Source: a virus
Reading direction: 5' to 3' (one strand)
UHGV virus genome: UHGV-0149439
Length of the DNA stretch: 29,037 nucleotides
Shown: one piece after another, positions 6,827 to 14,700 of the stretch
How the letters are laid out: every line of letters starts with the position of its first letter
Numbering within the stretch: the stretch's first letter is position 1
The notes under the pieces: generated by a model
The model's database searches: none
What the model saw: the letters and a program-made list of their open reading frames with translations, nothing else
Told to the model about the DNA's origin: nothing
Made by a program: the position numbers and the translations under genes

Positions 6827-7673
6827 ATTAACCGGCTACGTATGGGATGGTTGCGCGGCGTCGGGCATGAAGTTGTCTAGTGTCGCGATCATGGCTCGCC
6901 TTGCTGATTTCAGCAGCGATGAGGGGGTGTGCTGGCCGTCCATTGAAACTATTGCTCGTCAGCTTGGCGCGGGGCCGAGCACTATCAGAACGGCAATCGC
7001 TAAGCTTGAAAAAGATGGCTGGCTCACGCGTACACAGCGCCGCAATGGTAACCGTAATGCGTCGAACGTTTACCGCCTGAATGTGGCGAAACTTCAGGCT
7101 GCCGCATTTTCTCAACTGTCAGATTCTGACACGTCAAAATCTGACGCATCAAAATTTGACGCCTCAAAAGCTGACCCGTCGAAATCTGGCAAAAACGGCG
7201 GTTTTGACCCGTCAGAATCTGGCGGGGATCCGTCAGTAAAATCAACACAAGATCCACAAGTAACTTCAAAACCCTCTTGTCCGGTTGCGGCGCAACCAGA
7301 CCCTGAAGTCGTGATTACTGACCAGGCGATCTTAGTTTTGTCCCATTTGAATCAGATCAGCGGATCCCGGTATCAGAAATCAAAAACATCCCTGGAGAAC
7401 ATTCGTGCCCGACTGCGTGAGGGGTACAGCGTTGCAGACCTGCAACTTGTTATCGACCTGAAGCATGAACACTGGCACGAGAACGACGAGCAGTACCAGT
7501 ACATGCGCCCGGAAACGCTGTTCGGCCCGAAGAAATTCGAGAGCTATCTGCAAAGCGCTACCCGCTGGGAGCAGAAGGGACGGCCTAAACGCGCTGACTG
7601 GGGTGCGAAAAATCGCGATGTGATGGCTTTTGGTCCGGTTGATACAAGGATTCCAGAGGGGTTCAGAGGATGA
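6816..7673 (+). CDS. Replication initiator (lambda O-like role): N-terminal winged-HTH plus conserved phage C-terminal domain
   Basis: N-terminus CWPSIETIARQLGAGPSTIRTAIAKLEKDGWL. C-terminus LNQISGSRYQKSKTSLENIRARLREGYSVADLQLVIDLKHEHW...RPETLFGPKKFESYL (Phg_2220_C-type). Iterons sit in the linker. Confidence 0.85.
   Translation: MSTKLTGYVWDGCAASGMKLSSVAIMARLADFSSDEGVCWPSIETIARQLGAGPSTIRTAIAKLEKDGWLTRTQRRNGNRNASNVYRLNVAKLQAAAFSQLSDSDTSKSDASKFDASKADPSKSGKNGGFDPSESGGDPSVKSTQDPQVTSKPSCPVAAQPDPEVVITDQAILVLSHLNQISGSRYQKSKTSLENIRARLREGYSVADLQLVIDLKHEHWHENDEQYQYMRPETLFGPKKFESYLQSATRWEQKGRPKRADWGAKNRDVMAFGPVDTRIPEGFRG
7125..7241. repeat. Iteron array, probable phage origin of replication inside the initiator gene
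   Basis: Four tandem 15-mers: TCTGACACGTCAAAA, TCTGACGCATCAAAA, TTTGACGCCTCAAAA, GCTGACCCGTCGAAA. Two more copies follow: TTTGACCCGTCAGAA (7203) and GGATCCGTCAGTAAA (7227). Confidence 0.65.
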
Positions 7674-8551
7674 CGTTAAACAAATATTGCCAGGCGCTGG
7701 TGGCACTACGTAGCCAACCAGCCCACGAATTGAAAGAAGTTGGCGATCAGTGGCGGACACCGGATCTGCTTTTCTGGGGTATCAACGCGCTATTTGGACC
7801 ATTAGTTCTGGACTTGTTTGCTGACGACGACAACGCGAAGTGCCCGGCATGGTACACCGCCGAAGATAATGCGCTGACGCAGGACTGGTCTGAACGTCTT
7901 GCAGAACTGGGTGGCGCTGGTTATGGCAACCCACCGTATAGCCGTTCGCAGTACCACGAGAAACAGGCGATCACCGGCATGACGCACATCATGAACTACG
8001 CAGCAGCCCAGCGCGAAAAGGGCGGGCGTTATGTATTCCTGATAAAAGCCGCGCCGAGTGAAACGTGGTGGCCGGAAGATGCCGATCACATTGTATTCAT
8101 TCGCGGGCGCATTGGGTTCGATCTGCCTGTGTGGTTTGTACCGGCTGACGAAAAACAGAAGCCCACCAGCGCGTTTTTTGCCGGTGCCATAGCTGTATTC
8201 GATAAGTCGTGGCGTGGTGAGCGGTTCAGCTATATCAACCGCACAGAACTTGAGGAAAAAGGGCGGGCATTTATGGCGTTGGCTCAATTCGCCGTTGGTA
8301 AAGAGCAAACAATTGCAATGCAGGCAGCCAGGGAACCAGCAGCAACACCGGAAACTGAGTCACGAATCTGGCCTCTCGAGGTTGGTCTGGTGTTTAACCA
8401 GGTGGAAGGCGTTGATGTATTGAGCGAGGCCCAGCAGAACAAACTGAAAGCCAACATCAATCAACTCTGGCTGGAACGAACGGCCACCAGCGAAATTATC
8501 ACAATTGCGCGTGGTCTTGTTGGCAGCATGCAGGGGGTAACCCATGCGTGA
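7670..8551 (+). CDS. dam: Phage N6-adenine DNA methyltransferase (orphan Dam-type)
   Basis: DQWRTP near the N-terminus and the catalytic GNPPYS motif. ATGA overlap with the upstream gene. No adjacent endonuclease. Confidence 0.9.
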   Translation: MTLNKYCQALVALRSQPAHELKEVGDQWRTPDLLFWGINALFGPLVLDLFADDDNAKCPAWYTAEDNALTQDWSERLAELGGAGYGNPPYSRSQYHEKQAITGMTHIMNYAAAQREKGGRYVFLIKAAPSETWWPEDADHIVFIRGRIGFDLPVWFVPADEKQKPTSAFFAGAIAVFDKSWRGERFSYINRTELEEKGRAFMALAQFAVGKEQTIAMQAAREPAATPETESRIWPLEVGLVFNQVEGVDVLSEAQQNKLKANINQLWLERTATSEIITIARGLVGSMQGVTHA

Positions 8552-10478
8552 GATTATCGTTGATAACTTTGCTGGTGGCGGTGGTGCATCAACGGGTATT
8601 GAACTGGCGATCGGACGCAGCGTGGATATTGCGATCAACCACGACGAAAACGCCATTGCGATGCACAAGACGAACCACCCGGACACACTGCATTATTGTG
8701 AATCCGTATTTGACGTGGATCCTGTAGCCGCCACCGGAGGTAATCCAGTCGGACTGGCGTGGTTTAGCCCGGACTGCCGACACTTCTCGAAGGCAAAAGG
8801 CGCAAAGCCTGTGAAAAAAGAGATACGCGGTCTTGCCTGGATTGTTCTGCGTTGGGCACTGGCGAAGCGACCGCGTGTGATGATGCTGGAGAACGTGGAA
8901 GAGTTCAAAACGTGGGGACCGCTGCTGGCCGATGAAATGCGTCCGGATCCTGCCCGCACTGGCGAAACATTCAATGCATTTGTCGGCATGCTGTCCACTG
9001 GCATTCCTGCTGACCACCCGGCACTGTCAGAAGTTTGTGAGTTTCTGTCTATTGAAAGAGGTAGCGAGCAGGCGCAACTGCTGGTGGATGGGCTTGGATA
9101 TGATGTTGATTATCGCGAACTACGCGCGTGTGATTACGGCGCGCCGACGATCCGCAAACGCTTCTTCATGGTTATGCGCTGCGATGGCTGCCCAATCCAG
9201 TGGCCTGCTGTTACCCATGGGGATCCTAAGTCTCTGGAGGTGCAGAGCGGCAGGCTGATGCCATGGCGTACCGCTGCGGAATGTATCGACTGGAATGTTC
9301 CGGCCCTGTCCATCTTCGACCGCAAAAAACCGCTGGCGGAGAACACTCTGAAGCGGATCGCGCGCGGCATACAGCGCTTTGTTATCGAAAGTGCGTCGCC
9401 GTTTATCGTGAAGTGTAACCACACAAGCTCAAAAAATTCGTATGACGCTTTTCGCGGGCAGTCGCTGAATGAACCATTACAGACCATTACTAAAAAACTC
9501 GGCTACGCGTTAGCCGTTCCACACCTGACAAAATTCCGCACTGGCGCAACCGGGCAGCCCGTTACCGAACCTGTCCCGACGGTAACCGCTGGCACGTCAA
9601 AACGCCCGGGTGGGAATGGGCATGCTCTCGGGATTGTTGAGGCTGCACTGACGCCATTCCTGGCGGGTAATGGTGGTAGTGAATACCAGGCTAAACCGCG
9701 CCCGCTGGATAAACCTGCTCATACCATTCTGAAGCAATCCCGCGCCTGTCTGGTTGCGCCAGTGATAGCCCGCCAGTTTGGGGCCAGCGTTGGCCATCGG
9801 GCAGACGAACCGAGCGCAACCATAACCGCTGGCGGTGGCGGTAAATCTCAACTGGTAACGCCTACGCTGATCCAGATGGGTTATGGCGAACGACCTGGAC
9901 AAGAACCGCGTGTGCTGCGGCTGGATAACCCGCTGGGGACCGTTACTGCAGGCGGAAATAAATTTGCGACGGTGAGCGCGTTCCTGGCGAAACACTACGG
10001 CGGTAACTATACGGGGCCTGGTGTCAGTATGGATGAACCCGCGCATTCAGTGACCACTGTCGACCATCATGCAGTAGTTGCCTCTCATCTGGTGAAACTG
10101 CGTGGAACATGCCGCGACGGGCAACGCCTGGATGGGCCCATGCCAACAATCACCGCTGGTGGCCAACACGTGGGTGAGGTACGCACATTTCTCGAGACGT
10201 ATTGCGGGGAAAGTGACGATGAATGGCTGGTAACTATCGATGGGGTGAAATACCAGATCGTTGATATCGGAATGCGCATGTTGCAGCCGCATGAACTCTA
10301 CAAAGCGCAGGGCTTCCCCGATGGATACGTTATTGATCAGGACTACCGTGGAAATCGCTATGCAAAAGATAAGCAGGTAGCCCGCTGCGGTAATGCGGTA
10401 CCACCACCATTCGCCAGGGCGCTGGTGGAGGCAAATCTTCCGGAACTGTGTGCAGTGCAACAACAGGAGGTGGCATGA
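8544..10478 (+). CDS. dcm: DNA cytosine-5 methyltransferase, unusually long (644 aa)
   Basis: Motif I VDNFAGGGGAS, motif IV SPDCRHFS, motif VI MLENVEEF, motif VIII YGAPTIRKRFF, QGFPDGY, and motif X GNAVPPPF. Confidence 0.9.
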   Translation: MREIIVDNFAGGGGASTGIELAIGRSVDIAINHDENAIAMHKTNHPDTLHYCESVFDVDPVAATGGNPVGLAWFSPDCRHFSKAKGAKPVKKEIRGLAWIVLRWALAKRPRVMMLENVEEFKTWGPLLADEMRPDPARTGETFNAFVGMLSTGIPADHPALSEVCEFLSIERGSEQAQLLVDGLGYDVDYRELRACDYGAPTIRKRFFMVMRCDGCPIQWPAVTHGDPKSLEVQSGRLMPWRTAAECIDWNVPALSIFDRKKPLAENTLKRIARGIQRFVIESASPFIVKCNHTSSKNSYDAFRGQSLNEPLQTITKKLGYALAVPHLTKFRTGATGQPVTEPVPTVTAGTSKRPGGNGHALGIVEAALTPFLAGNGGSEYQAKPRPLDKPAHTILKQSRACLVAPVIARQFGASVGHRADEPSATITAGGGGKSQLVTPTLIQMGYGERPGQEPRVLRLDNPLGTVTAGGNKFATVSAFLAKHYGGNYTGPGVSMDEPAHSVTTVDHHAVVASHLVKLRGTCRDGQRLDGPMPTITAGGQHVGEVRTFLETYCGESDDEWLVTIDGVKYQIVDIGMRMLQPHELYKAQGFPDGYVIDQDYRGNRYAKDKQVARCGNAVPPPFARALVEANLPELCAVQQQEVA

Positions 10479-10861
10479 AACTTGTGCTCCCGTTCCCTCC
10501 GAGCGTGAACACTTACTGGCGCGCCCCTAACAAGGGGCCGCTGGCCGGTCGTCACCTCATTAGCGCAGATGGTCGTAAATACCAGAGCGCTGCCTGCATG
10601 GCGATCATTGAGCAATTACGACGTCTCCCGAAGCCATCGACTGAACTGGCAGCGGTAGAAATCACTCTGTACCCGCCGGATGCGCGCCGCAGGGATATCG
10701 ATAATTACAACAAAGCCCTGTTTGACGCGCTGACTCATGCGGGTGTCTGGGAAGATGACAGCCAGATTAAGCGCATGCTGGTGGAATGGGGACCCGTAGT
10801 GCCGAAAGGTCGGGTAGAGATAACGATCAGCAGATATGAACCGGCGGGTGCAGCCGCCTGA
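10475..10861 (+). CDS. rusA: RusA Holliday-junction resolvase
   Basis: MKLVLPFPPSVNTYW... and the catalytic acidic cluster RRRDIDNYNKALFDAL. AGGAGG SD; ATGA overlap with the dcm stop. Confidence 0.92.
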   Translation: MKLVLPFPPSVNTYWRAPNKGPLAGRHLISADGRKYQSAACMAIIEQLRRLPKPSTELAAVEITLYPPDARRRDIDNYNKALFDALTHAGVWEDDSQIKRMLVEWGPVVPKGRVEITISRYEPAGAAA

Positions 10862-10874
10862 TATGGAGAAAAGT

Positions 10875-11561
10875 ATGAGCCAGTTAATCGTGAATGGTGT
10901 AGTAACAATGTCCAGCCGTGATATTGCGGATCTGGTTCAAAGTAAACACAGTGACGTGAAACGCTCGGCTGAGCGCCTTGTTGCTGCGGGAATTTTAACC
11001 GCGCCGTTGGCGCAGTTCGATTTTGAGCATAACGGCAATATTTACCAGGAGTATCGTTTTAACAAACGCGACTCTCTGGTGATTGTTGCCAGACTGTCAC
11101 CTGAATTTACCGCCGCGGTCGTCGATCGCTGGCAGGAACTGGAAGAAGGGCAGAGTGTCAGTGTTCCCCGCTCATTGCCGGAAGCACTTCGCATGGCTGC
11201 TGATTTAGCCGAGCAGAAAGAGCAACTGACCATCCAACTGGCAGCCGCGGCGCCAAAAGTGGAGTTTGTTGACCGTTACTGCTCTGCAAAAGGCTCCATG
11301 TCATTCCGGCAGGTAGCCAAATTGCTCAACGCAAAAGAAACTGAGTTCCGCCTGTTCCTTATTGAACGCAATATCCTGTATCGCCTCGGCGGCACACTTA
11401 CCCCCATGGCGCAGCACATTTCAGCGGGAAGATTTGAAGTTAAGACGGGAACATCGAGCACATCCAATCACGCCTTCAGCCAGACGCGCTTCACTGCCAA
11501 GGGGGTACGCTGGATTGGTGGTTTGTGGGCTGAACATATTGCAGGGGGGCAGGCGGCGTGA
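10875..11561 (+). CDS. Rha-family regulator / KilAC-domain antirepressor
   Basis: N-terminus VTMSSRDIADLVQSKHSDVKRSAERL (pRha-type). C-terminus PKVEFVDRYCSAKGSMSFRQVAKLL (KilA-C/ANT-type). GGAG lies 6 nt before ATG 10875. Confidence 0.8.
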   Translation: MSQLIVNGVVTMSSRDIADLVQSKHSDVKRSAERLVAAGILTAPLAQFDFEHNGNIYQEYRFNKRDSLVIVARLSPEFTAAVVDRWQELEEGQSVSVPRSLPEALRMAADLAEQKEQLTIQLAAAAPKVEFVDRYCSAKGSMSFRQVAKLLNAKETEFRLFLIERNILYRLGGTLTPMAQHISAGRFEVKTGTSSTSNHAFSQTRFTAKGVRWIGGLWAEHIAGGQAA

Positions 11562-12553
11562 GGGCTTTGTTAACTCCTGAAGTCGCCCATCGCATGGGGA
11601 TTGTGTTGTTTCGTCCCGGCGCGGAATTAATGCACCTCTTCATGCGCGGTCGCGTTCTTCTCGAACCTGAACCAGAAGAAATGGCGTCATTCAGTACAGG
11701 GGCTGTTCCCGCCGCCATTCAGCCGCTGGCTGATGATCCGGTAATGCGGAAGGTCTTCGAGAATGAACGGGTTATTCAGCGTGCCGGCGGGCTTCCTTCC
11801 CTTGAGCAATGGTTGAGTAATCGGTTTGAATGCCAGTGGCCACATTCAACGTGGCACGACAAGAACTTCACAACAATGCGGCACCCACCAGGAAGCATTC
11901 GTCTGTGCTGGCATTGCGATCACACTTTGTCCGGGCAGCATACCGAACAGCTTGCAGGTATAGCGGCAGGAAACCTGGTATCCTGGATTCTGGAAGTTAT
12001 TCGTCGCGATTCTGGTTTTCCCGAGTCGCATGTACTGACGTTGCCGGAAATGTGCTGGTGGCTGGTCAGGAACGACCTGGCTGATGTTATTCCGGAAAGC
12101 GTTGCGCACAAGGGGCTACGCCTTCCGGATGAGAAGATCCGCTCTGTTATGAGGGAAAGCGACATTGTGCCTTCCGTGTCAGCAGCCAGCCTCGTGCAGG
12201 AGAAGGCTAAGAAGATCCTCACGCTCTCTGTTGATCCGGAGTCGCCAGAGTCTTTCATGCTCAGGCCAAAACGTCGCCGCTGGGTAAATGAGACGTACAC
12301 CCGCTGGGTTAAAACACAACCCTGTGAGTGTTGCCGACGGCCAGCAGATGATCCGCACCATATCGTAGGGCACGGTATGGGGGGGACAGCAACAAAAGCC
12401 CATGATCTCTTCGTGATCCCTCTGTGCAGAGAGTGCCACGACGAGTTACACGCCGATGTACCGGCATTCGAGCAGAAGCATGGTACGCAGCTTGAGCTGC
12501 TACTGCGTTTTATGGATCGGGCGCTGGCGATCGGCGTAATTGCGAAAGCTTAA
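11558..12553 (+). CDS. DUF968-family protein with an HNH-like Cys/His C-terminus
   Basis: C-terminus CECCRRPADDPHHIVGHGMGGTATKAHDLFVIPLCRECHDELH. GTGA overlap with the upstream gene. Precedes Q, as ydfU does in Qin-type prophages (from recollection). Confidence 0.75.
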   Translation: MRALLTPEVAHRMGIVLFRPGAELMHLFMRGRVLLEPEPEEMASFSTGAVPAAIQPLADDPVMRKVFENERVIQRAGGLPSLEQWLSNRFECQWPHSTWHDKNFTTMRHPPGSIRLCWHCDHTLSGQHTEQLAGIAAGNLVSWILEVIRRDSGFPESHVLTLPEMCWWLVRNDLADVIPESVAHKGLRLPDEKIRSVMRESDIVPSVSAASLVQEKAKKILTLSVDPESPESFMLRPKRRRWVNETYTRWVKTQPCECCRRPADDPHHIVGHGMGGTATKAHDLFVIPLCRECHDELHADVPAFEQKHGTQLELLLRFMDRALAIGVIAKA

Positions 12554-12574
12554 GTGTATGGAGCGCAAAGAAGC

Positions 12575-13264
12575 ATGAATCAACAAGACCTGAATTTTGT
12601 AAGAATAGAATTGCGCCGCGCGCTACCTGACCTCTCTGGGGGAACAAAAGGGCAGCTTGAGGCTTTCAGTGAACACCCACCAGCAGACAAAAATGCCACC
12701 CCGCGCCGTGGTATTCATCTCGTCGAACTCGAAGGAGAGAAGGGGCCACGCTTTGTTAACTCGCTTTCCGCGCCACTGTATGTGCTGGAAACACGCAGCC
12801 GCCGCAGGCCAATGCCGCCGATAAAAGATGCGGAATTTGAGTCCGCGCCGTGGCGTAGGGCAGTGTCCGCGCTTAGTGGATACCAGCAGGCCTGGTTGCG
12901 GTACTGCTACGGTTTTGACCTTAGCTATAAGCACCAGGTGATGATGTGTGAATACGTCTGGAAAACTTATCAGAAATGCCTGGGTGAAAACTCGCTTCAG
13001 GAGCGCGTAGTAAAGAAACTGATAGGCCTGGTATGGCTGGCAGGGCAGGAAATTACCGCAACCCGAAACAATGAAACCTATAAAGACTACGCTGGCGCGG
13101 CGCTGGCCCGTATGGTTAGCGTTGACCGTTCGACTTGGTTGCGCGTCTATTCAGGGCACTGGGCAGGGTTAAAGGCTGCTTTTACCCAGCTTGATGAGTC
13201 TGCGCTGGTCATGGCTCTTGAATACTATGAGGATGAAGAAGCACTCAAAGTGGCAGAAATGTGA
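12575..13264 (+). CDS. Late-gene antiterminator Q-like protein
   Basis: Last early gene, directly upstream of a promoter and terminator and the lysis cassette. QQAWLRYCYGFDLSYKHQ resembles the long Q (QuuQ-type) family, from recollection. An alternative GTG start is at 12554. Confidence 0.6.
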   Translation: MNQQDLNFVRIELRRALPDLSGGTKGQLEAFSEHPPADKNATPRRGIHLVELEGEKGPRFVNSLSAPLYVLETRSRRRPMPPIKDAEFESAPWRRAVSALSGYQQAWLRYCYGFDLSYKHQVMMCEYVWKTYQKCLGENSLQERVVKKLIGLVWLAGQEITATRNNETYKDYAGAALARMVSVDRSTWLRVYSGHWAGLKAAFTQLDESALVMALEYYEDEEALKVAEM

Positions 13265-13294: not shown

Positions 13295-13323
13295 TTGCAA
13301 AATGCAACAAAATAAGCCATATT
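13295..13323 (+). promoter_or_regulatory. Candidate late promoter (PR'-like)
   Basis: TTGCAA-17 nt-CATATT lies 30 nt after the Q stop and ~35 nt before a strong terminator. Confidence 0.35.
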
Positions 13324-13356
13324 TGAAGCATATTTGATATGTTGCCAAAGTTTTAT

Positions 13357-13381
13357 AAACCCGCCTATGAGCGGGTTTTTG
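13357..13381 (+). terminator. Intrinsic terminator (tR'-like)
   Basis: AAACCCGC-CTATGA-GCGGGTTT stem followed by TTTTTG. Confidence 0.8.
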
Positions 13382-13384
13382 CGT

Positions 13385-13424
13385 TATAATTCACCTATTT
13401 AAATCAATTGTTTTAAATAGGTGA
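13385..13424. promoter_or_regulatory. Consensus TATAAT plus a 34-bp near-perfect palindrome covering the RBS of the 283-aa gene
   Basis: TATAAT at 13385-13390. Palindrome TCACCTATTTAAAtCAATTGtTTTAAATAGGTGA at 13391-13424 has one central mismatch pair, and its right arm contains the SD AGGTGA for ATG 13428. Confidence 0.5.
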
Positions 13425-13427
13425 AGT

Positions 13428-14279
13428 ATGAAAATAGATAATCCCGAAAATCCACTTGAACGAAACGATTTTACGATGGATGACTTCCATCACTACTTAA
13501 GGGAGTTTGATAAAGCTGTATGTGAAGCGAATGCTGTAAGTCAGGGGGTTGGTGTGCGAATGGCTGAGGCTTTTAAAGGGTGGTCTACATACATTTTTTC
13601 ACGAATCTGCATTCATGCTTCAATAATGATTTCCAACGTACCAAGATCAAGATGGGCTAAGCGGGATTATGACTTTTGGGATTTTTCGGCGATTGCACCT
13701 CATGTAAGAGCGATTCTGGAAGCTGAGTTATTGTTTATGTATTTATCTGAGAATCCAGATTCAACTGAGGAGTGGTCAGCAAAGTTGAATGTCATGCACA
13801 TGAATGATTGTGTAAAGAGAATTGAGTTATTTACATCTAGTGATAATACGAAAGCATTGGATTTTTATCATGAACAAAAAGATATAATAACTGAGAGACT
13901 TAATAACAACCCTGTTTTTTTATCCCTTGAACAAGGAACCAGAAAACGTTGCTTGACTGGAAAAGCGCTTATGATTCCAAATCGAGATGAGTTATTGGTT
14001 AAACTGGGAAAAGATCCAAAGTCATTTAAAATAATGTTCGATTTTTTATCTCATTATACGCATATACTACCTATGTCATATTATAAAATGGAGCCAAACG
14101 GAAGGGGAACTGGTTGTTTTAACAACTATGACTTTGGCTATATGATTATGGGGATGATTATTTGTACTGAATCCTTGACTAAGTGTACAGATAGATTAGT
14201 AGAACTTTTTCCTGATGTTAGACGGTTGCGAAAAGGAACTAAATCAAAATTCACGTTAGGGCCTAAACCAACAAAATAA
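13428..14279 (+). CDS. Hypothetical 283-aa protein: AT-rich moron between Q and the holins
   Basis: Long clean ORF with an SD, probably all-helical, no TM segment and no catalytic motif I can assign. It has its own TATAAT/palindrome and terminator. Confidence 0.8.
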   Translation: MKIDNPENPLERNDFTMDDFHHYLREFDKAVCEANAVSQGVGVRMAEAFKGWSTYIFSRICIHASIMISNVPRSRWAKRDYDFWDFSAIAPHVRAILEAELLFMYLSENPDSTEEWSAKLNVMHMNDCVKRIELFTSSDNTKALDFYHEQKDIITERLNNNPVFLSLEQGTRKRCLTGKALMIPNRDELLVKLGKDPKSFKIMFDFLSHYTHILPMSYYKMEPNGRGTGCFNNYDFGYMIMGMIICTESLTKCTDRLVELFPDVRRLRKGTKSKFTLGPKPTK

Positions 14280-14303: not shown

Positions 14304-14329
14304 AAAGGCTTCCAAATGGAAGTCTTTTA
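14304..14329 (+). terminator. Intrinsic terminator after the moron
   Basis: GGCTTCC-AAAT-GGAAGTC (one G.U pair) followed by TTTTATAATTT. Confidence 0.6.
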
Positions 14330-14468: not shown

Positions 14469-14585
14469 ATGAAAGAAGGGGATTACTGGATTCAGCATGT
14501 GTGTGTTGTACAGGTGGCGTTTTACACCGATGACACTGTAGATGACCTGAAATGGGGAAAACAATCAAAGGAGTCTGGCACCTAA
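14469..14585 (+). CDS. Possible 38-aa small ORF
   Basis: AAGGA 9 nt upstream. Product MKEGDYWIQHVCVVQVAFYTDDTVDDLKWGKQSKESGT. No other support. Confidence 0.25.
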   Translation: MKEGDYWIQHVCVVQVAFYTDDTVDDLKWGKQSKESGT

Positions 14586-14674
14586 CCAGAGTCGATGATA
14601 TTTGCCATAACAGAGAGGCCGAAGTGCTTGAAGGTCCTCTCGCTCCATTAATGTAAGTAACCGTTCATACTTCG

Positions 14675-14700
14675 AGGCTGCCAGATGGCGGCCTTTTTTA
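14675..14700 (+). terminator. Intrinsic terminator immediately upstream of the holin gene
   Basis: AGGCTGCC-AGAT-GGCGGCCT (one U.G pair) followed by TTTTTTATT. Confidence 0.75.

Follow-up and report, generated by a model that had tools for sequence, protein, structure and literature searches.

The classic cargo of the slot between the antiterminator gene Q and the lysis genes of lambdoid phages is stxAB of the Stx phages, and the production of Shiga toxin from this slot depends on late read-through transcription. Read-through also matters in IS10/Tn10, for which Davis, Simons and Kleckner reportedly described, in 1985, a fold-back inhibition by which transcripts that enter from outside the element are kept from being translated into transposase. 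Prophages and plasmids are furthermore known to carry abortive-infection or exclusion proteins that are encoded by single genes, such as AbiV, BstA and Tai (PMC8585504, PMC11364771). The gene analysed here resembles each of these systems in some respects and differs from it in others, and we consider it a solid candidate for a defence gene. It was found in the virus genome UHGV-0149439, of which the whole analysed stretch of 29,037 nt is referred to as the window.

The gene is an ORF of 283 codons at positions 13428..14279 of the plus strand, which starts with ATG and encodes a protein of 33 kDa. With a GC content of 0.360, against about 0.53 in its neighbours, and a GC3 of 0.31, it has the highest AT content in this part of the window. 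The upstream genes have a GC content of 0.53-0.55 and a GC3 of 0.54-0.57; they encode an Ant/Rha antirepressor (10836-11561) and a DUF968/HNH protein (11558-12553), both identified with Pfam and PHROGs, and a Q antiterminator (12554-13264, plus strand; PF06323 Phage_antiter_Q, E 7.7e-37; PHROG 304, E 8e-72) that forms the left border of the slot. The right border is formed by two holin genes on the plus strand (14746-15138 and 15128-15406; PF16931, E 8.6e-33, and PF05449, E 1e-20), downstream of which lies a gene for a GH19 endolysin (15564-16190; Pfam and PHROGs), and these lysis genes have a GC content of 0.51-0.52. Between the stop codon of the ORF and the first holin gene lie 466 nt, including a match to an isrI-like sRNA. 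The remainder of the window has the gene layout of a complete lambdoid prophage, and a scan of the window for tRNA genes, as present in the slot of Stx phages, returned none. Both the clean, AT-rich ORF and its position between Q and the holins, as given in the first-pass annotation, are borne out by these results.

Homologues of the gene occupy the same slot in several other prophages. A gene with 86% identity was found between a Q-type gene and a lysis cassette in a Hafnia prophage, and homologues in the corresponding position were found in an Enterobacter prophage (82% identity), in Citrobacter freundii (58% identity; in 180 index blocks), in a decayed Raoultella prophage (50% identity) and in avian and other E. 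coli strains, where blastn detected the gene in 17 of 5,426 complete genomes. A Q gene is located immediately upstream in 21 of the 26 IMG/VR loci, and one further locus is cut and has holins downstream. The upstream Q genes belong to PF06323, PF06530/DUF1133 or PF03589, and an unannotated gene of 200 aa was also encountered in the Q position, while the lysis cassettes downstream are of the holin_8+holin_3_7, holin_2 or lambda-S type. The combination with three Pfam-defined Q families and at least three types of holin indicates that the gene moves independently of its neighbours. A tblastn search of 50,697 deposited phage genomes yielded no homologue.

The left junction of the inserted cassette could be placed at about position 13381. 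It is preceded on the plus strand by a conserved Q-proximal segment of 81 nt (13300..13380), presumably the leader of the late promoter, which ends at a terminator and is shared, with 98.8% identity up to position 13380, by 47 E. coli genomes including that of Nissle 1917. In Nissle 1917, an equal Ant-DUF968-Q backbone and this leader are followed by genes for a Clp-fold serine protease and a DNA methyltransferase. Two contigs that are 99% identical (L020 and L027) have an additional minus-strand ORF of 239 aa beside the gene. Since the PADLOC search of this alternative cargo (the Nissle protease and the 239-aa ORF of L020) gave no match, the slot is not demonstrably specific for defence genes.

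The locus thus shares with the Stx-type morons a position that is preceded by Q, the late promoter and tR' and followed by the holin, a foreign base composition, a private terminator and a cargo that is interchanged among related phages. It differs from them in that the encoded protein is related neither in sequence nor in fold to Shiga toxin or any other characterised cargo. The slot is filled differently in related phages, the base composition of the gene deviates from that of its surroundings, and the gene has a terminator of its own. From these sequence comparisons, we conclude that the ORF is well supported as the cargo of a horizontally acquired moron cassette in a Q/tR'-to-lysis exchange hotspot. 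The earlier reading of the locus as a moron slot, and the proposal to look for homologues in variable slots of other prophages, are supported by the recurrence of the gene in unrelated lambdoid prophages and by the different cargo of Nissle 1917.

The ORF is flanked by two hairpins on the plus strand. Upstream lies an intrinsic terminator of the tR' type (13357..13381) with the sequence AAACCCGC-ctatga-GCGGGTTT and a T run; its 8-bp perfect inverted repeat forms a GC-rich hairpin at 13357-13378, followed by the T run, 50 nt 5' of the ATG. A tR'-type hairpin is found 5' of the gene in every prophage locus that was examined, including the Hafnia, Enterobacter, Citrobacter and Raoultella loci. 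Downstream, the terminator scan detected a terminator-like hairpin of the cassette itself, with a 10-pair stem, at 14304..14327; the Hafnia, Enterobacter and Raoultella loci likewise have a hairpin with a T run in this position behind the stop codon. A tR'-type hairpin upstream and a private terminator downstream together represent the classic architecture of a moron.

Directly after the upstream terminator, inspection of the sequence revealed a -10-like hexamer, TATAAT (13385-13390, plus strand), of a presumed moron promoter, with no recognisable -35 element. A scan for consensus promoters did not call a full sigma-70 promoter here, which is explained by the missing -35 element, the position of which lies inside the terminator hairpin. 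Hexamers resembling a -10 element occur at the equivalent place in five other loci (L001, L008, L016, L033 and L036). The hexamer overlaps with a palindrome at 13386..13429 of the plus strand, which has 22-nt arms with 0 nt between them that are 91% complementary, and which covers the Shine-Dalgarno (SD) sequence AGGTG (13419-13423) and ends two bases into the ATG. We consider it unlikely that this palindrome is a shared protein operator, as its sequence is not conserved in the homologous loci. Of the private signals that had been attributed to the gene, the TATAAT, the hairpin at the ribosome-binding site (RBS) and the terminator are therefore present, while neither a conserved operator nor a full promoter call was obtained.

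In RNA form, the palindrome brings an anti-SD sequence, CACCT (13392-13396), into pairing with the SD sequence AGGTG (13419-13423), in a stem that reaches the start codon. The predicted fold has a free energy of -19.1 kcal/mol and a z-score of -6.8 relative to dinucleotide shuffles, with 10 of the 10 bases of the SD window paired. Hairpins with an anti-SD sequence upstream of the SD sequence are also found in other lineages, where they are built from different sequences. They were detected in L036 (-10-like TATAAT; anti-SD/SD CCCCC/GGGGG; z -1.8), L033 (TATACT; GCCCC/GGGGC; z -3.7), L016 (TACAAT; GCTCC/GGGGG; z -2.0) and L031 (TAGCAT; CTCTCT/GGAGG; z -3.9), in all four of which the SD-occluding hairpin lies directly 3' of the -10-like hexamer, and in L003 (CCTC/GGGAG; z -2.2), which has no clear -10-like hexamer. 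An SD hairpin is missing in roughly half of the lineages with the gene in the Q slot, among them that of the Hafnia gene with 86% identity, and the two stem differences in the 99%-identical variant of L020 and L027 weaken the pairing without compensation.

The arrangement suggests a form of gating that depends on the origin of the transcript. In the lysogen, transcription would start about 7 nt past the TATAAT, at approximately position 13397. As this assumed start lies just beyond the anti-SD sequence CACCT, an mRNA from the moron promoter would lack the left arm of the palindrome and have a free SD sequence, and the protein would be made at a low constitutive level. [quoted passage not shown] Judging from the predicted pairing, the hairpin probably blocks translation from late read-through transcripts. 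The first-pass annotation had expected expression at a high level on induction, which has become doubtful because the hairpin would hide the RBS on such transcripts. This also sets the locus apart from the Stx-type morons, as an RBS hairpin would counteract the translation of read-through transcripts. A parallel is the fold-back inhibition attributed to IS10/Tn10, in which the left arm likewise lies upstream of, or at, the start of the element's own transcript (an assumed start in the case of the moron), such that an RBS-hiding hairpin can form only in transcripts from outside the element. The present case concerns a prophage moron instead of an insertion sequence, and the hairpin is found in only some of the lineages.

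Concerning the encoded protein, the first-pass annotation had been unable to name a family, and this can now be corrected. The protein itself matches Pfam family PF18928 (DUF5677) over residues 84-219 with 21.7 bits and an E-value of 2.4e-4, below the gathering cut-off of 27.1 bits. Its close relatives form 72 clusters, and 34 of the 40 aligned members of this clade match PF18928 on their own, the best with an E-value of 3.2e-7. A search with a profile of the clade retrieved 1,259 clusters at 50% identity, including 655 at E <= 1e-10 and 178 at E <= 1e-30; distant clusters sampled from these score 29-47 bits on PF18928, which is above the Pfam threshold. With a profile of the distant members, every full-length match carried PF18928, and the domain was lacking only in three short fragments. 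This is supported by RefSeq, in which an E. coli homologue with 80.5% identity is named 'DUF5677 domain-containing protein'. The homology is therefore secure at the level of sequence, and the protein represents a divergent clade of DUF5677.

The clade has the R..E, D..R and S..H residues in common with the distant members. It differs from them by an additional N-terminal helical hairpin, in which Cys residues are conserved, and by a conserved basic C-terminal tail, RKGxKSKFxxGPK, features that most of the distant members lack. A scan of PADLOC-DB v2 with the protein returned 0 families even at E <= 10, and scans of PHROGs and NCBIfam returned no match. Of the database searches that had been proposed earlier, PADLOC offered nothing; the family was named through a sub-threshold Pfam match together with profiles. 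None of the sources gave a functional name for the DUF5677 members among the relatives found, and the searchable literature on DUF5677/PF18928 assigns no function to the family. A study of Salmonella genomes lists DUF5677 among accessory Pfam markers, and in one relative (P0171) the domain is fused to a C-terminal RES toxin domain.

The AlphaFold2 model of the protein (pLDDT 89.2, pTM 0.87) consists of twelve helices, with weakly modelled regions confined to the two ends (the first 10 and the last 15 residues) and the loop 221-230. The maximum mean Kyte-Doolittle hydropathy over 19 residues is 1.19, which points to a soluble protein with no transmembrane segment. The all-helical protein without such a segment that had been predicted from the sequence is accordingly confirmed, and a membrane-bound or pore-forming protein, as prompted by matches to rhodopsins, was dropped because the hydropathy is too low for transmembrane helices. 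Structural comparison, which had been suggested as a route to a family, was less productive: Foldseek detected no significant relative of the predicted model in the PDB (best E-value 0.53, TM-score about 0.3) or among the predicted viral structures of BFVD (best E-value 0.47), and a sequence-profile search of the PDB gave chance matches alone, with E-values of 0.35 and above.

Across 40 sequences with identities down to 39%, 29 residues are invariant. In 108 diverse members, R94 (98%), E98 (93%), D127 (97%), R131 (94%), S208 (97%), H212 (98%) and G229 (94%) are conserved, as are W84-D85, Y105 and the loop R226-G-x-G229, and R94, S208 and H212 remain invariant in a second, more distant alignment. 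R94/E98, D127/R131 and S208/H212 form polar i/i+4 pairs on three helices. The close clade additionally has conserved cysteines (C32, C61 and C128), and the protein ends in a basic disordered tail (residues 263-283, pI 11.75). In the predicted model, the conserved polar pairs suggest the pattern that is expected of an active site or a ligand pocket, although the R-E and D-R pairs may instead be salt bridges with a structural, not a catalytic, role. The protein may act through a polar pocket between the three helices that carry these pairs, to which the flexible, glycine-rich R226-G-x-G229 loop and the basic tail would contribute. Pocket, loop and tail together suggest, as far as the model allows, an enzyme or a sensor for a phosphate-bearing ligand, either a nucleotide or a nucleic acid.

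Outside the Q-to-lysis slot, the gene was found in Burkholderiales prophages, where it adjoins and is convergent with a P2-type gpA gene, and on 9 plasmids. To describe its surroundings, 40 genomic loci from Gamma-, Beta- and Alphaproteobacteria were compared. No neighbour cluster in these 40 loci is shared beyond close relatives, and most of the flanking genes are separated by a gap of >70 nt or lie on the opposite strand. Without a shared partner, and with such gaps and orientations, the unit is a single gene.

Chromosomal islets with the gene contain genes of Type I restriction-modification, TIR, Lamassu, Old, AIPR and Gabija-like types. Three Xanthomonadales loci have HsdR (Type I) and a TIR_2 protein immediately upstream. 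Among the 149 neighbours within two genes, tallied as raw, uncontrolled counts, 4 are TIR_2 proteins, and PADLOC matched Old (1.9e-229), PDC-S06 (2e-212), a Type I methyltransferase (8.8e-189), LmuB (6.9e-165), ThsB (3.4e-129), MzaE (7.6e-84), mad2/3 and PD-Lambda-3. Individual family members lie 7 nt downstream of a gene for an AIPR abortive-infection protein, next to a KAP NTPase gene, 45 nt downstream of a serine recombinase gene in P. putida, and downstream of a gene for a DUF4365-TPR protein in Vibrio. In P. syringae, a pair of genes for an AAA_15 ATPase and a UvrD helicase is followed by two canonical DUF5677 genes, and a canonical member in Bradyrhizobium is part of an AbiEii/TIR_2/DUF4238/resolvase island. 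Defence genes were not seen in some chromosomal contexts, for example in Photobacterium and in a freshwater MAG. Nevertheless, members of the family adjoin defence genes repeatedly in unrelated genomes, which is the pattern on which guilt by association relies. An independent preprint reports an enrichment of DUF5677, with apparent co-transcription, beside the serine recombinases that serve as markers of defence loci in Bacillota. In the same preprint, 5 of 9 candidates protected E. faecalis against six Enterococcus phages, and the DUF5677 ORF that was included, a distant Gram-positive member of the family, was not among these five.

Based on these observations, of which the genomic settings of the family carry the most weight, the reading that we favour is that of a stand-alone DUF5677 defence effector of the prophage. 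It would be produced by the lysogen and shielded from late transcription, and its pocket would act on a phosphate-bearing ligand, with a tail that possibly binds nucleic acid; we give this reading a probability of roughly one half. The prophage would thereby supply the lysogen with an anti-phage activity of the superinfection-exclusion or abortive-infection type. The protein shares with AbiV, BstA and Tai that it is encoded by a lone gene in a variable slot of a mobile element, and that its homologues are distributed patchily across phyla and in defence islands; it differs from them in having no homology to these proteins (no match in PADLOC). The single-gene defence factor that had been proposed at first is thus favoured, if indirectly, by the lack of a conserved partner and by the defence genes in the neighbourhood, while the lack of a match in PADLOC, PHROGs and NCBIfam, the lack of a homologue in the deposited phage genomes, the contexts in which defence genes were not seen and the absence of protection by the Gram-positive ORF speak against it. 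A more far-reaching version would make DUF5677 a widespread and so far unrecognised family of single-protein immune effectors, with a novel helical fold, an R/E-D/R-S/H pocket that performs a new nucleotide or nucleic-acid chemistry, and, in lambdoid prophages, an anti-SD hairpin embedded in the promoter by which they would be translated in the lysogen and silenced in the lytic cycle. We regard this version as tentative and, on balance, improbable. With regard to the chemistry, a HEPN-type metal-independent RNase, which would cause abortive infection by cutting RNA in the manner of AbiV and other HEPN effectors, has the smallest chance of all the possibilities that we considered. A regular-expression search found no Rx4-6H motif in the protein and none is conserved in the family, Foldseek found nothing (best E-value 0.53), and none of the 40 members matched a Pfam family of the HEPN clan even at E <= 1. 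We rejected membership of the HEPN superfamily because the Rx4-6H motif is absent and the conserved residues are R94/E98, D127/R131 and S208/H212.

Two other explanations dispense with a defence function. The gene might contribute to lysogenic conversion or general fitness. Its product could be a regulator, or an enzyme of metabolism or the stress response, that takes no part in conflicts with phages, and the gene would simply ride in a permissive slot. Morons carry many kinds of cargo, some of the contexts contain housekeeping or accessory metabolism genes alone, members of the family are found widely among environmental Alpha-, Beta- and Gammaproteobacteria, and its place among the accessory markers of Salmonella would fit such a role as well. 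These points are outweighed in our view by the recurrence of defence genes at most two genes away in many unrelated genomes, by the RES fusion in one relative and by the hotspot positions in two different types of prophage, so that we consider a fitness gene unlikely. A late gene that benefits the phage itself, such as a counter-defence enzyme or a host-takeover factor that is abundant from the Q-dependent late transcript and not made in the lysogen, seems more unlikely still. Its location in the late operon, where it lies between Q/tR' and the holins, and the failure of the scan to find a convincing full promoter agree with this explanation, and antagonism of TIR signalling could be a reason for the TIR genes that lie close by in some genomes. 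It is difficult to reconcile, however, with the private terminator that several lineages carry immediately behind the stop codon and with an SD-occluding hairpin that would form precisely on read-through transcripts. Many homologues are moreover located on chromosomes and plasmids with no surrounding phage, the 50,697 deposited phage genomes contain none, and the fusion to a RES toxin in one relative likewise argues against it.

The Q-to-lysis locus is of a well-known kind, and the family was already catalogued in Pfam. New are the family name for this protein, the recurrence of the gene downstream of unrelated Q genes in the Q-to-lysis hotspot, the association of the family with defence islands across Proteobacteria and the conserved pocket, to which a hairpin that insulates the gene from read-through can possibly be added. 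Even if the defence reading were wrong, the gene would still be a well-defined marker of the Q-to-lysis exchange hotspot. If it is true, a role would be found for one of Pfam's domains of unknown function, whose clusters number over a thousand and occur in proteobacterial prophages, plasmids and defence islands, and a fold with no solved relative would join the immune effectors. The cassette also provides a simple example of how a prophage could keep a gene that is potentially harmful to itself translated in the lysogen and silent on the late transcript, with a proposed gating that is the opposite of the regulation of Shiga toxin in the same slot.

The Q-to-lysis slot carries different cargo in related prophages. 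In the prophage of E. coli Nissle 1917 (L086), a leader of 81 nt that is near-identical to that of the window is followed, in the same slot as the window's DUF5677 moron (3398-6079 in L086), by an ORF of 68 aa and by genes for an 'SDH family Clp fold serine proteinase' and for a DNA methyltransferase; a PADLOC scan of the proteinase gave no match. The IMG/VR contigs L020 and L027 carry a DUF5677 gene with 99% identity to that of the window, together with an extra 239-aa ORF between this gene and the holin (L020 5215-5934 and L027 7071-7790, both on the minus strand). This ORF is AT-rich, lies on the strand opposite to the DUF5677 gene, encodes hydrophobic N- and C-termini and had no match in Pfam or PADLOC. 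Past the lysis cassette of an Enterobacter prophage (L008), a RelA_SpoT-domain gene (10855-11931) matches the PADLOC defence candidate PDC-S33 (3.7e-117); that prophage therefore has an additional accessory gene, one labelled as a defence candidate.

Further accessory elements were detected in the window itself. Between the terminator of the moron and the holin, Rfam identified a match to the Hfq-binding sRNA isrI (14564-14660, plus strand; 47.5 bits, E 5e-8, with the gathering threshold at 45 bits), with a terminator-like hairpin 3' of it in the terminator scan (14674-14695). The slot may thus hold, beside the moron, this isrI-like element as another small piece of cargo. Just past the lysis cassette, a 111-aa ORF (16740-17075, plus strand) encodes a TonB C-terminal domain (PF03544, 1.9e-13); with a GC content of 0.42 it looks like another AT-rich moron, and it had no match in PADLOC. 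Upstream of Q, a 644-aa ORF resembling C5 cytosine DNA methyltransferases (8544-10478, plus strand) matches PADLOC MTase_II (1.5e-30). The 293-aa ORF directly 5' of it (7670-8551, plus strand) occupies the position of a Dam methylase in related prophages and is thereby a candidate methylase gene; the window prophage may therefore encode two orphan methyltransferases.

Within the DUF5677 family, the domain is fused to a C-terminal RES toxin domain in P0171 (660 aa, 5.2e-14), to an N-terminal DUF1353 in P0138 (422 aa, 6.4e-12) and to a weak MtlR-like N-terminal region in P0164 (478 aa, 7.5e-5), and about eight further members have a 200-aa N-terminal extension without annotation. A locus of Pseudomonas syringae (L088 3724-9700) has two paralogous DUF5677 genes, for proteins of 395 and 277 aa, downstream of a Gabija-like gene pair that encodes an ATPase (AAA_15/AAA_21) and a helicase of the UvrD type. 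In Luteimonas, Lysobacter and Stenotrophomonas, a TIR_2+DUF3298 protein of 398-400 aa (4722-5918 in L067 and L068, 4773-5975 in L072) is encoded on the same strand as a downstream DUF5677 homologue at a distance of 25-82 nt, with a Type I HsdR gene 5' of the TIR_2+DUF3298 gene in L067 and L068; this arrangement may represent a two-gene TIR-plus-DUF5677 variant.
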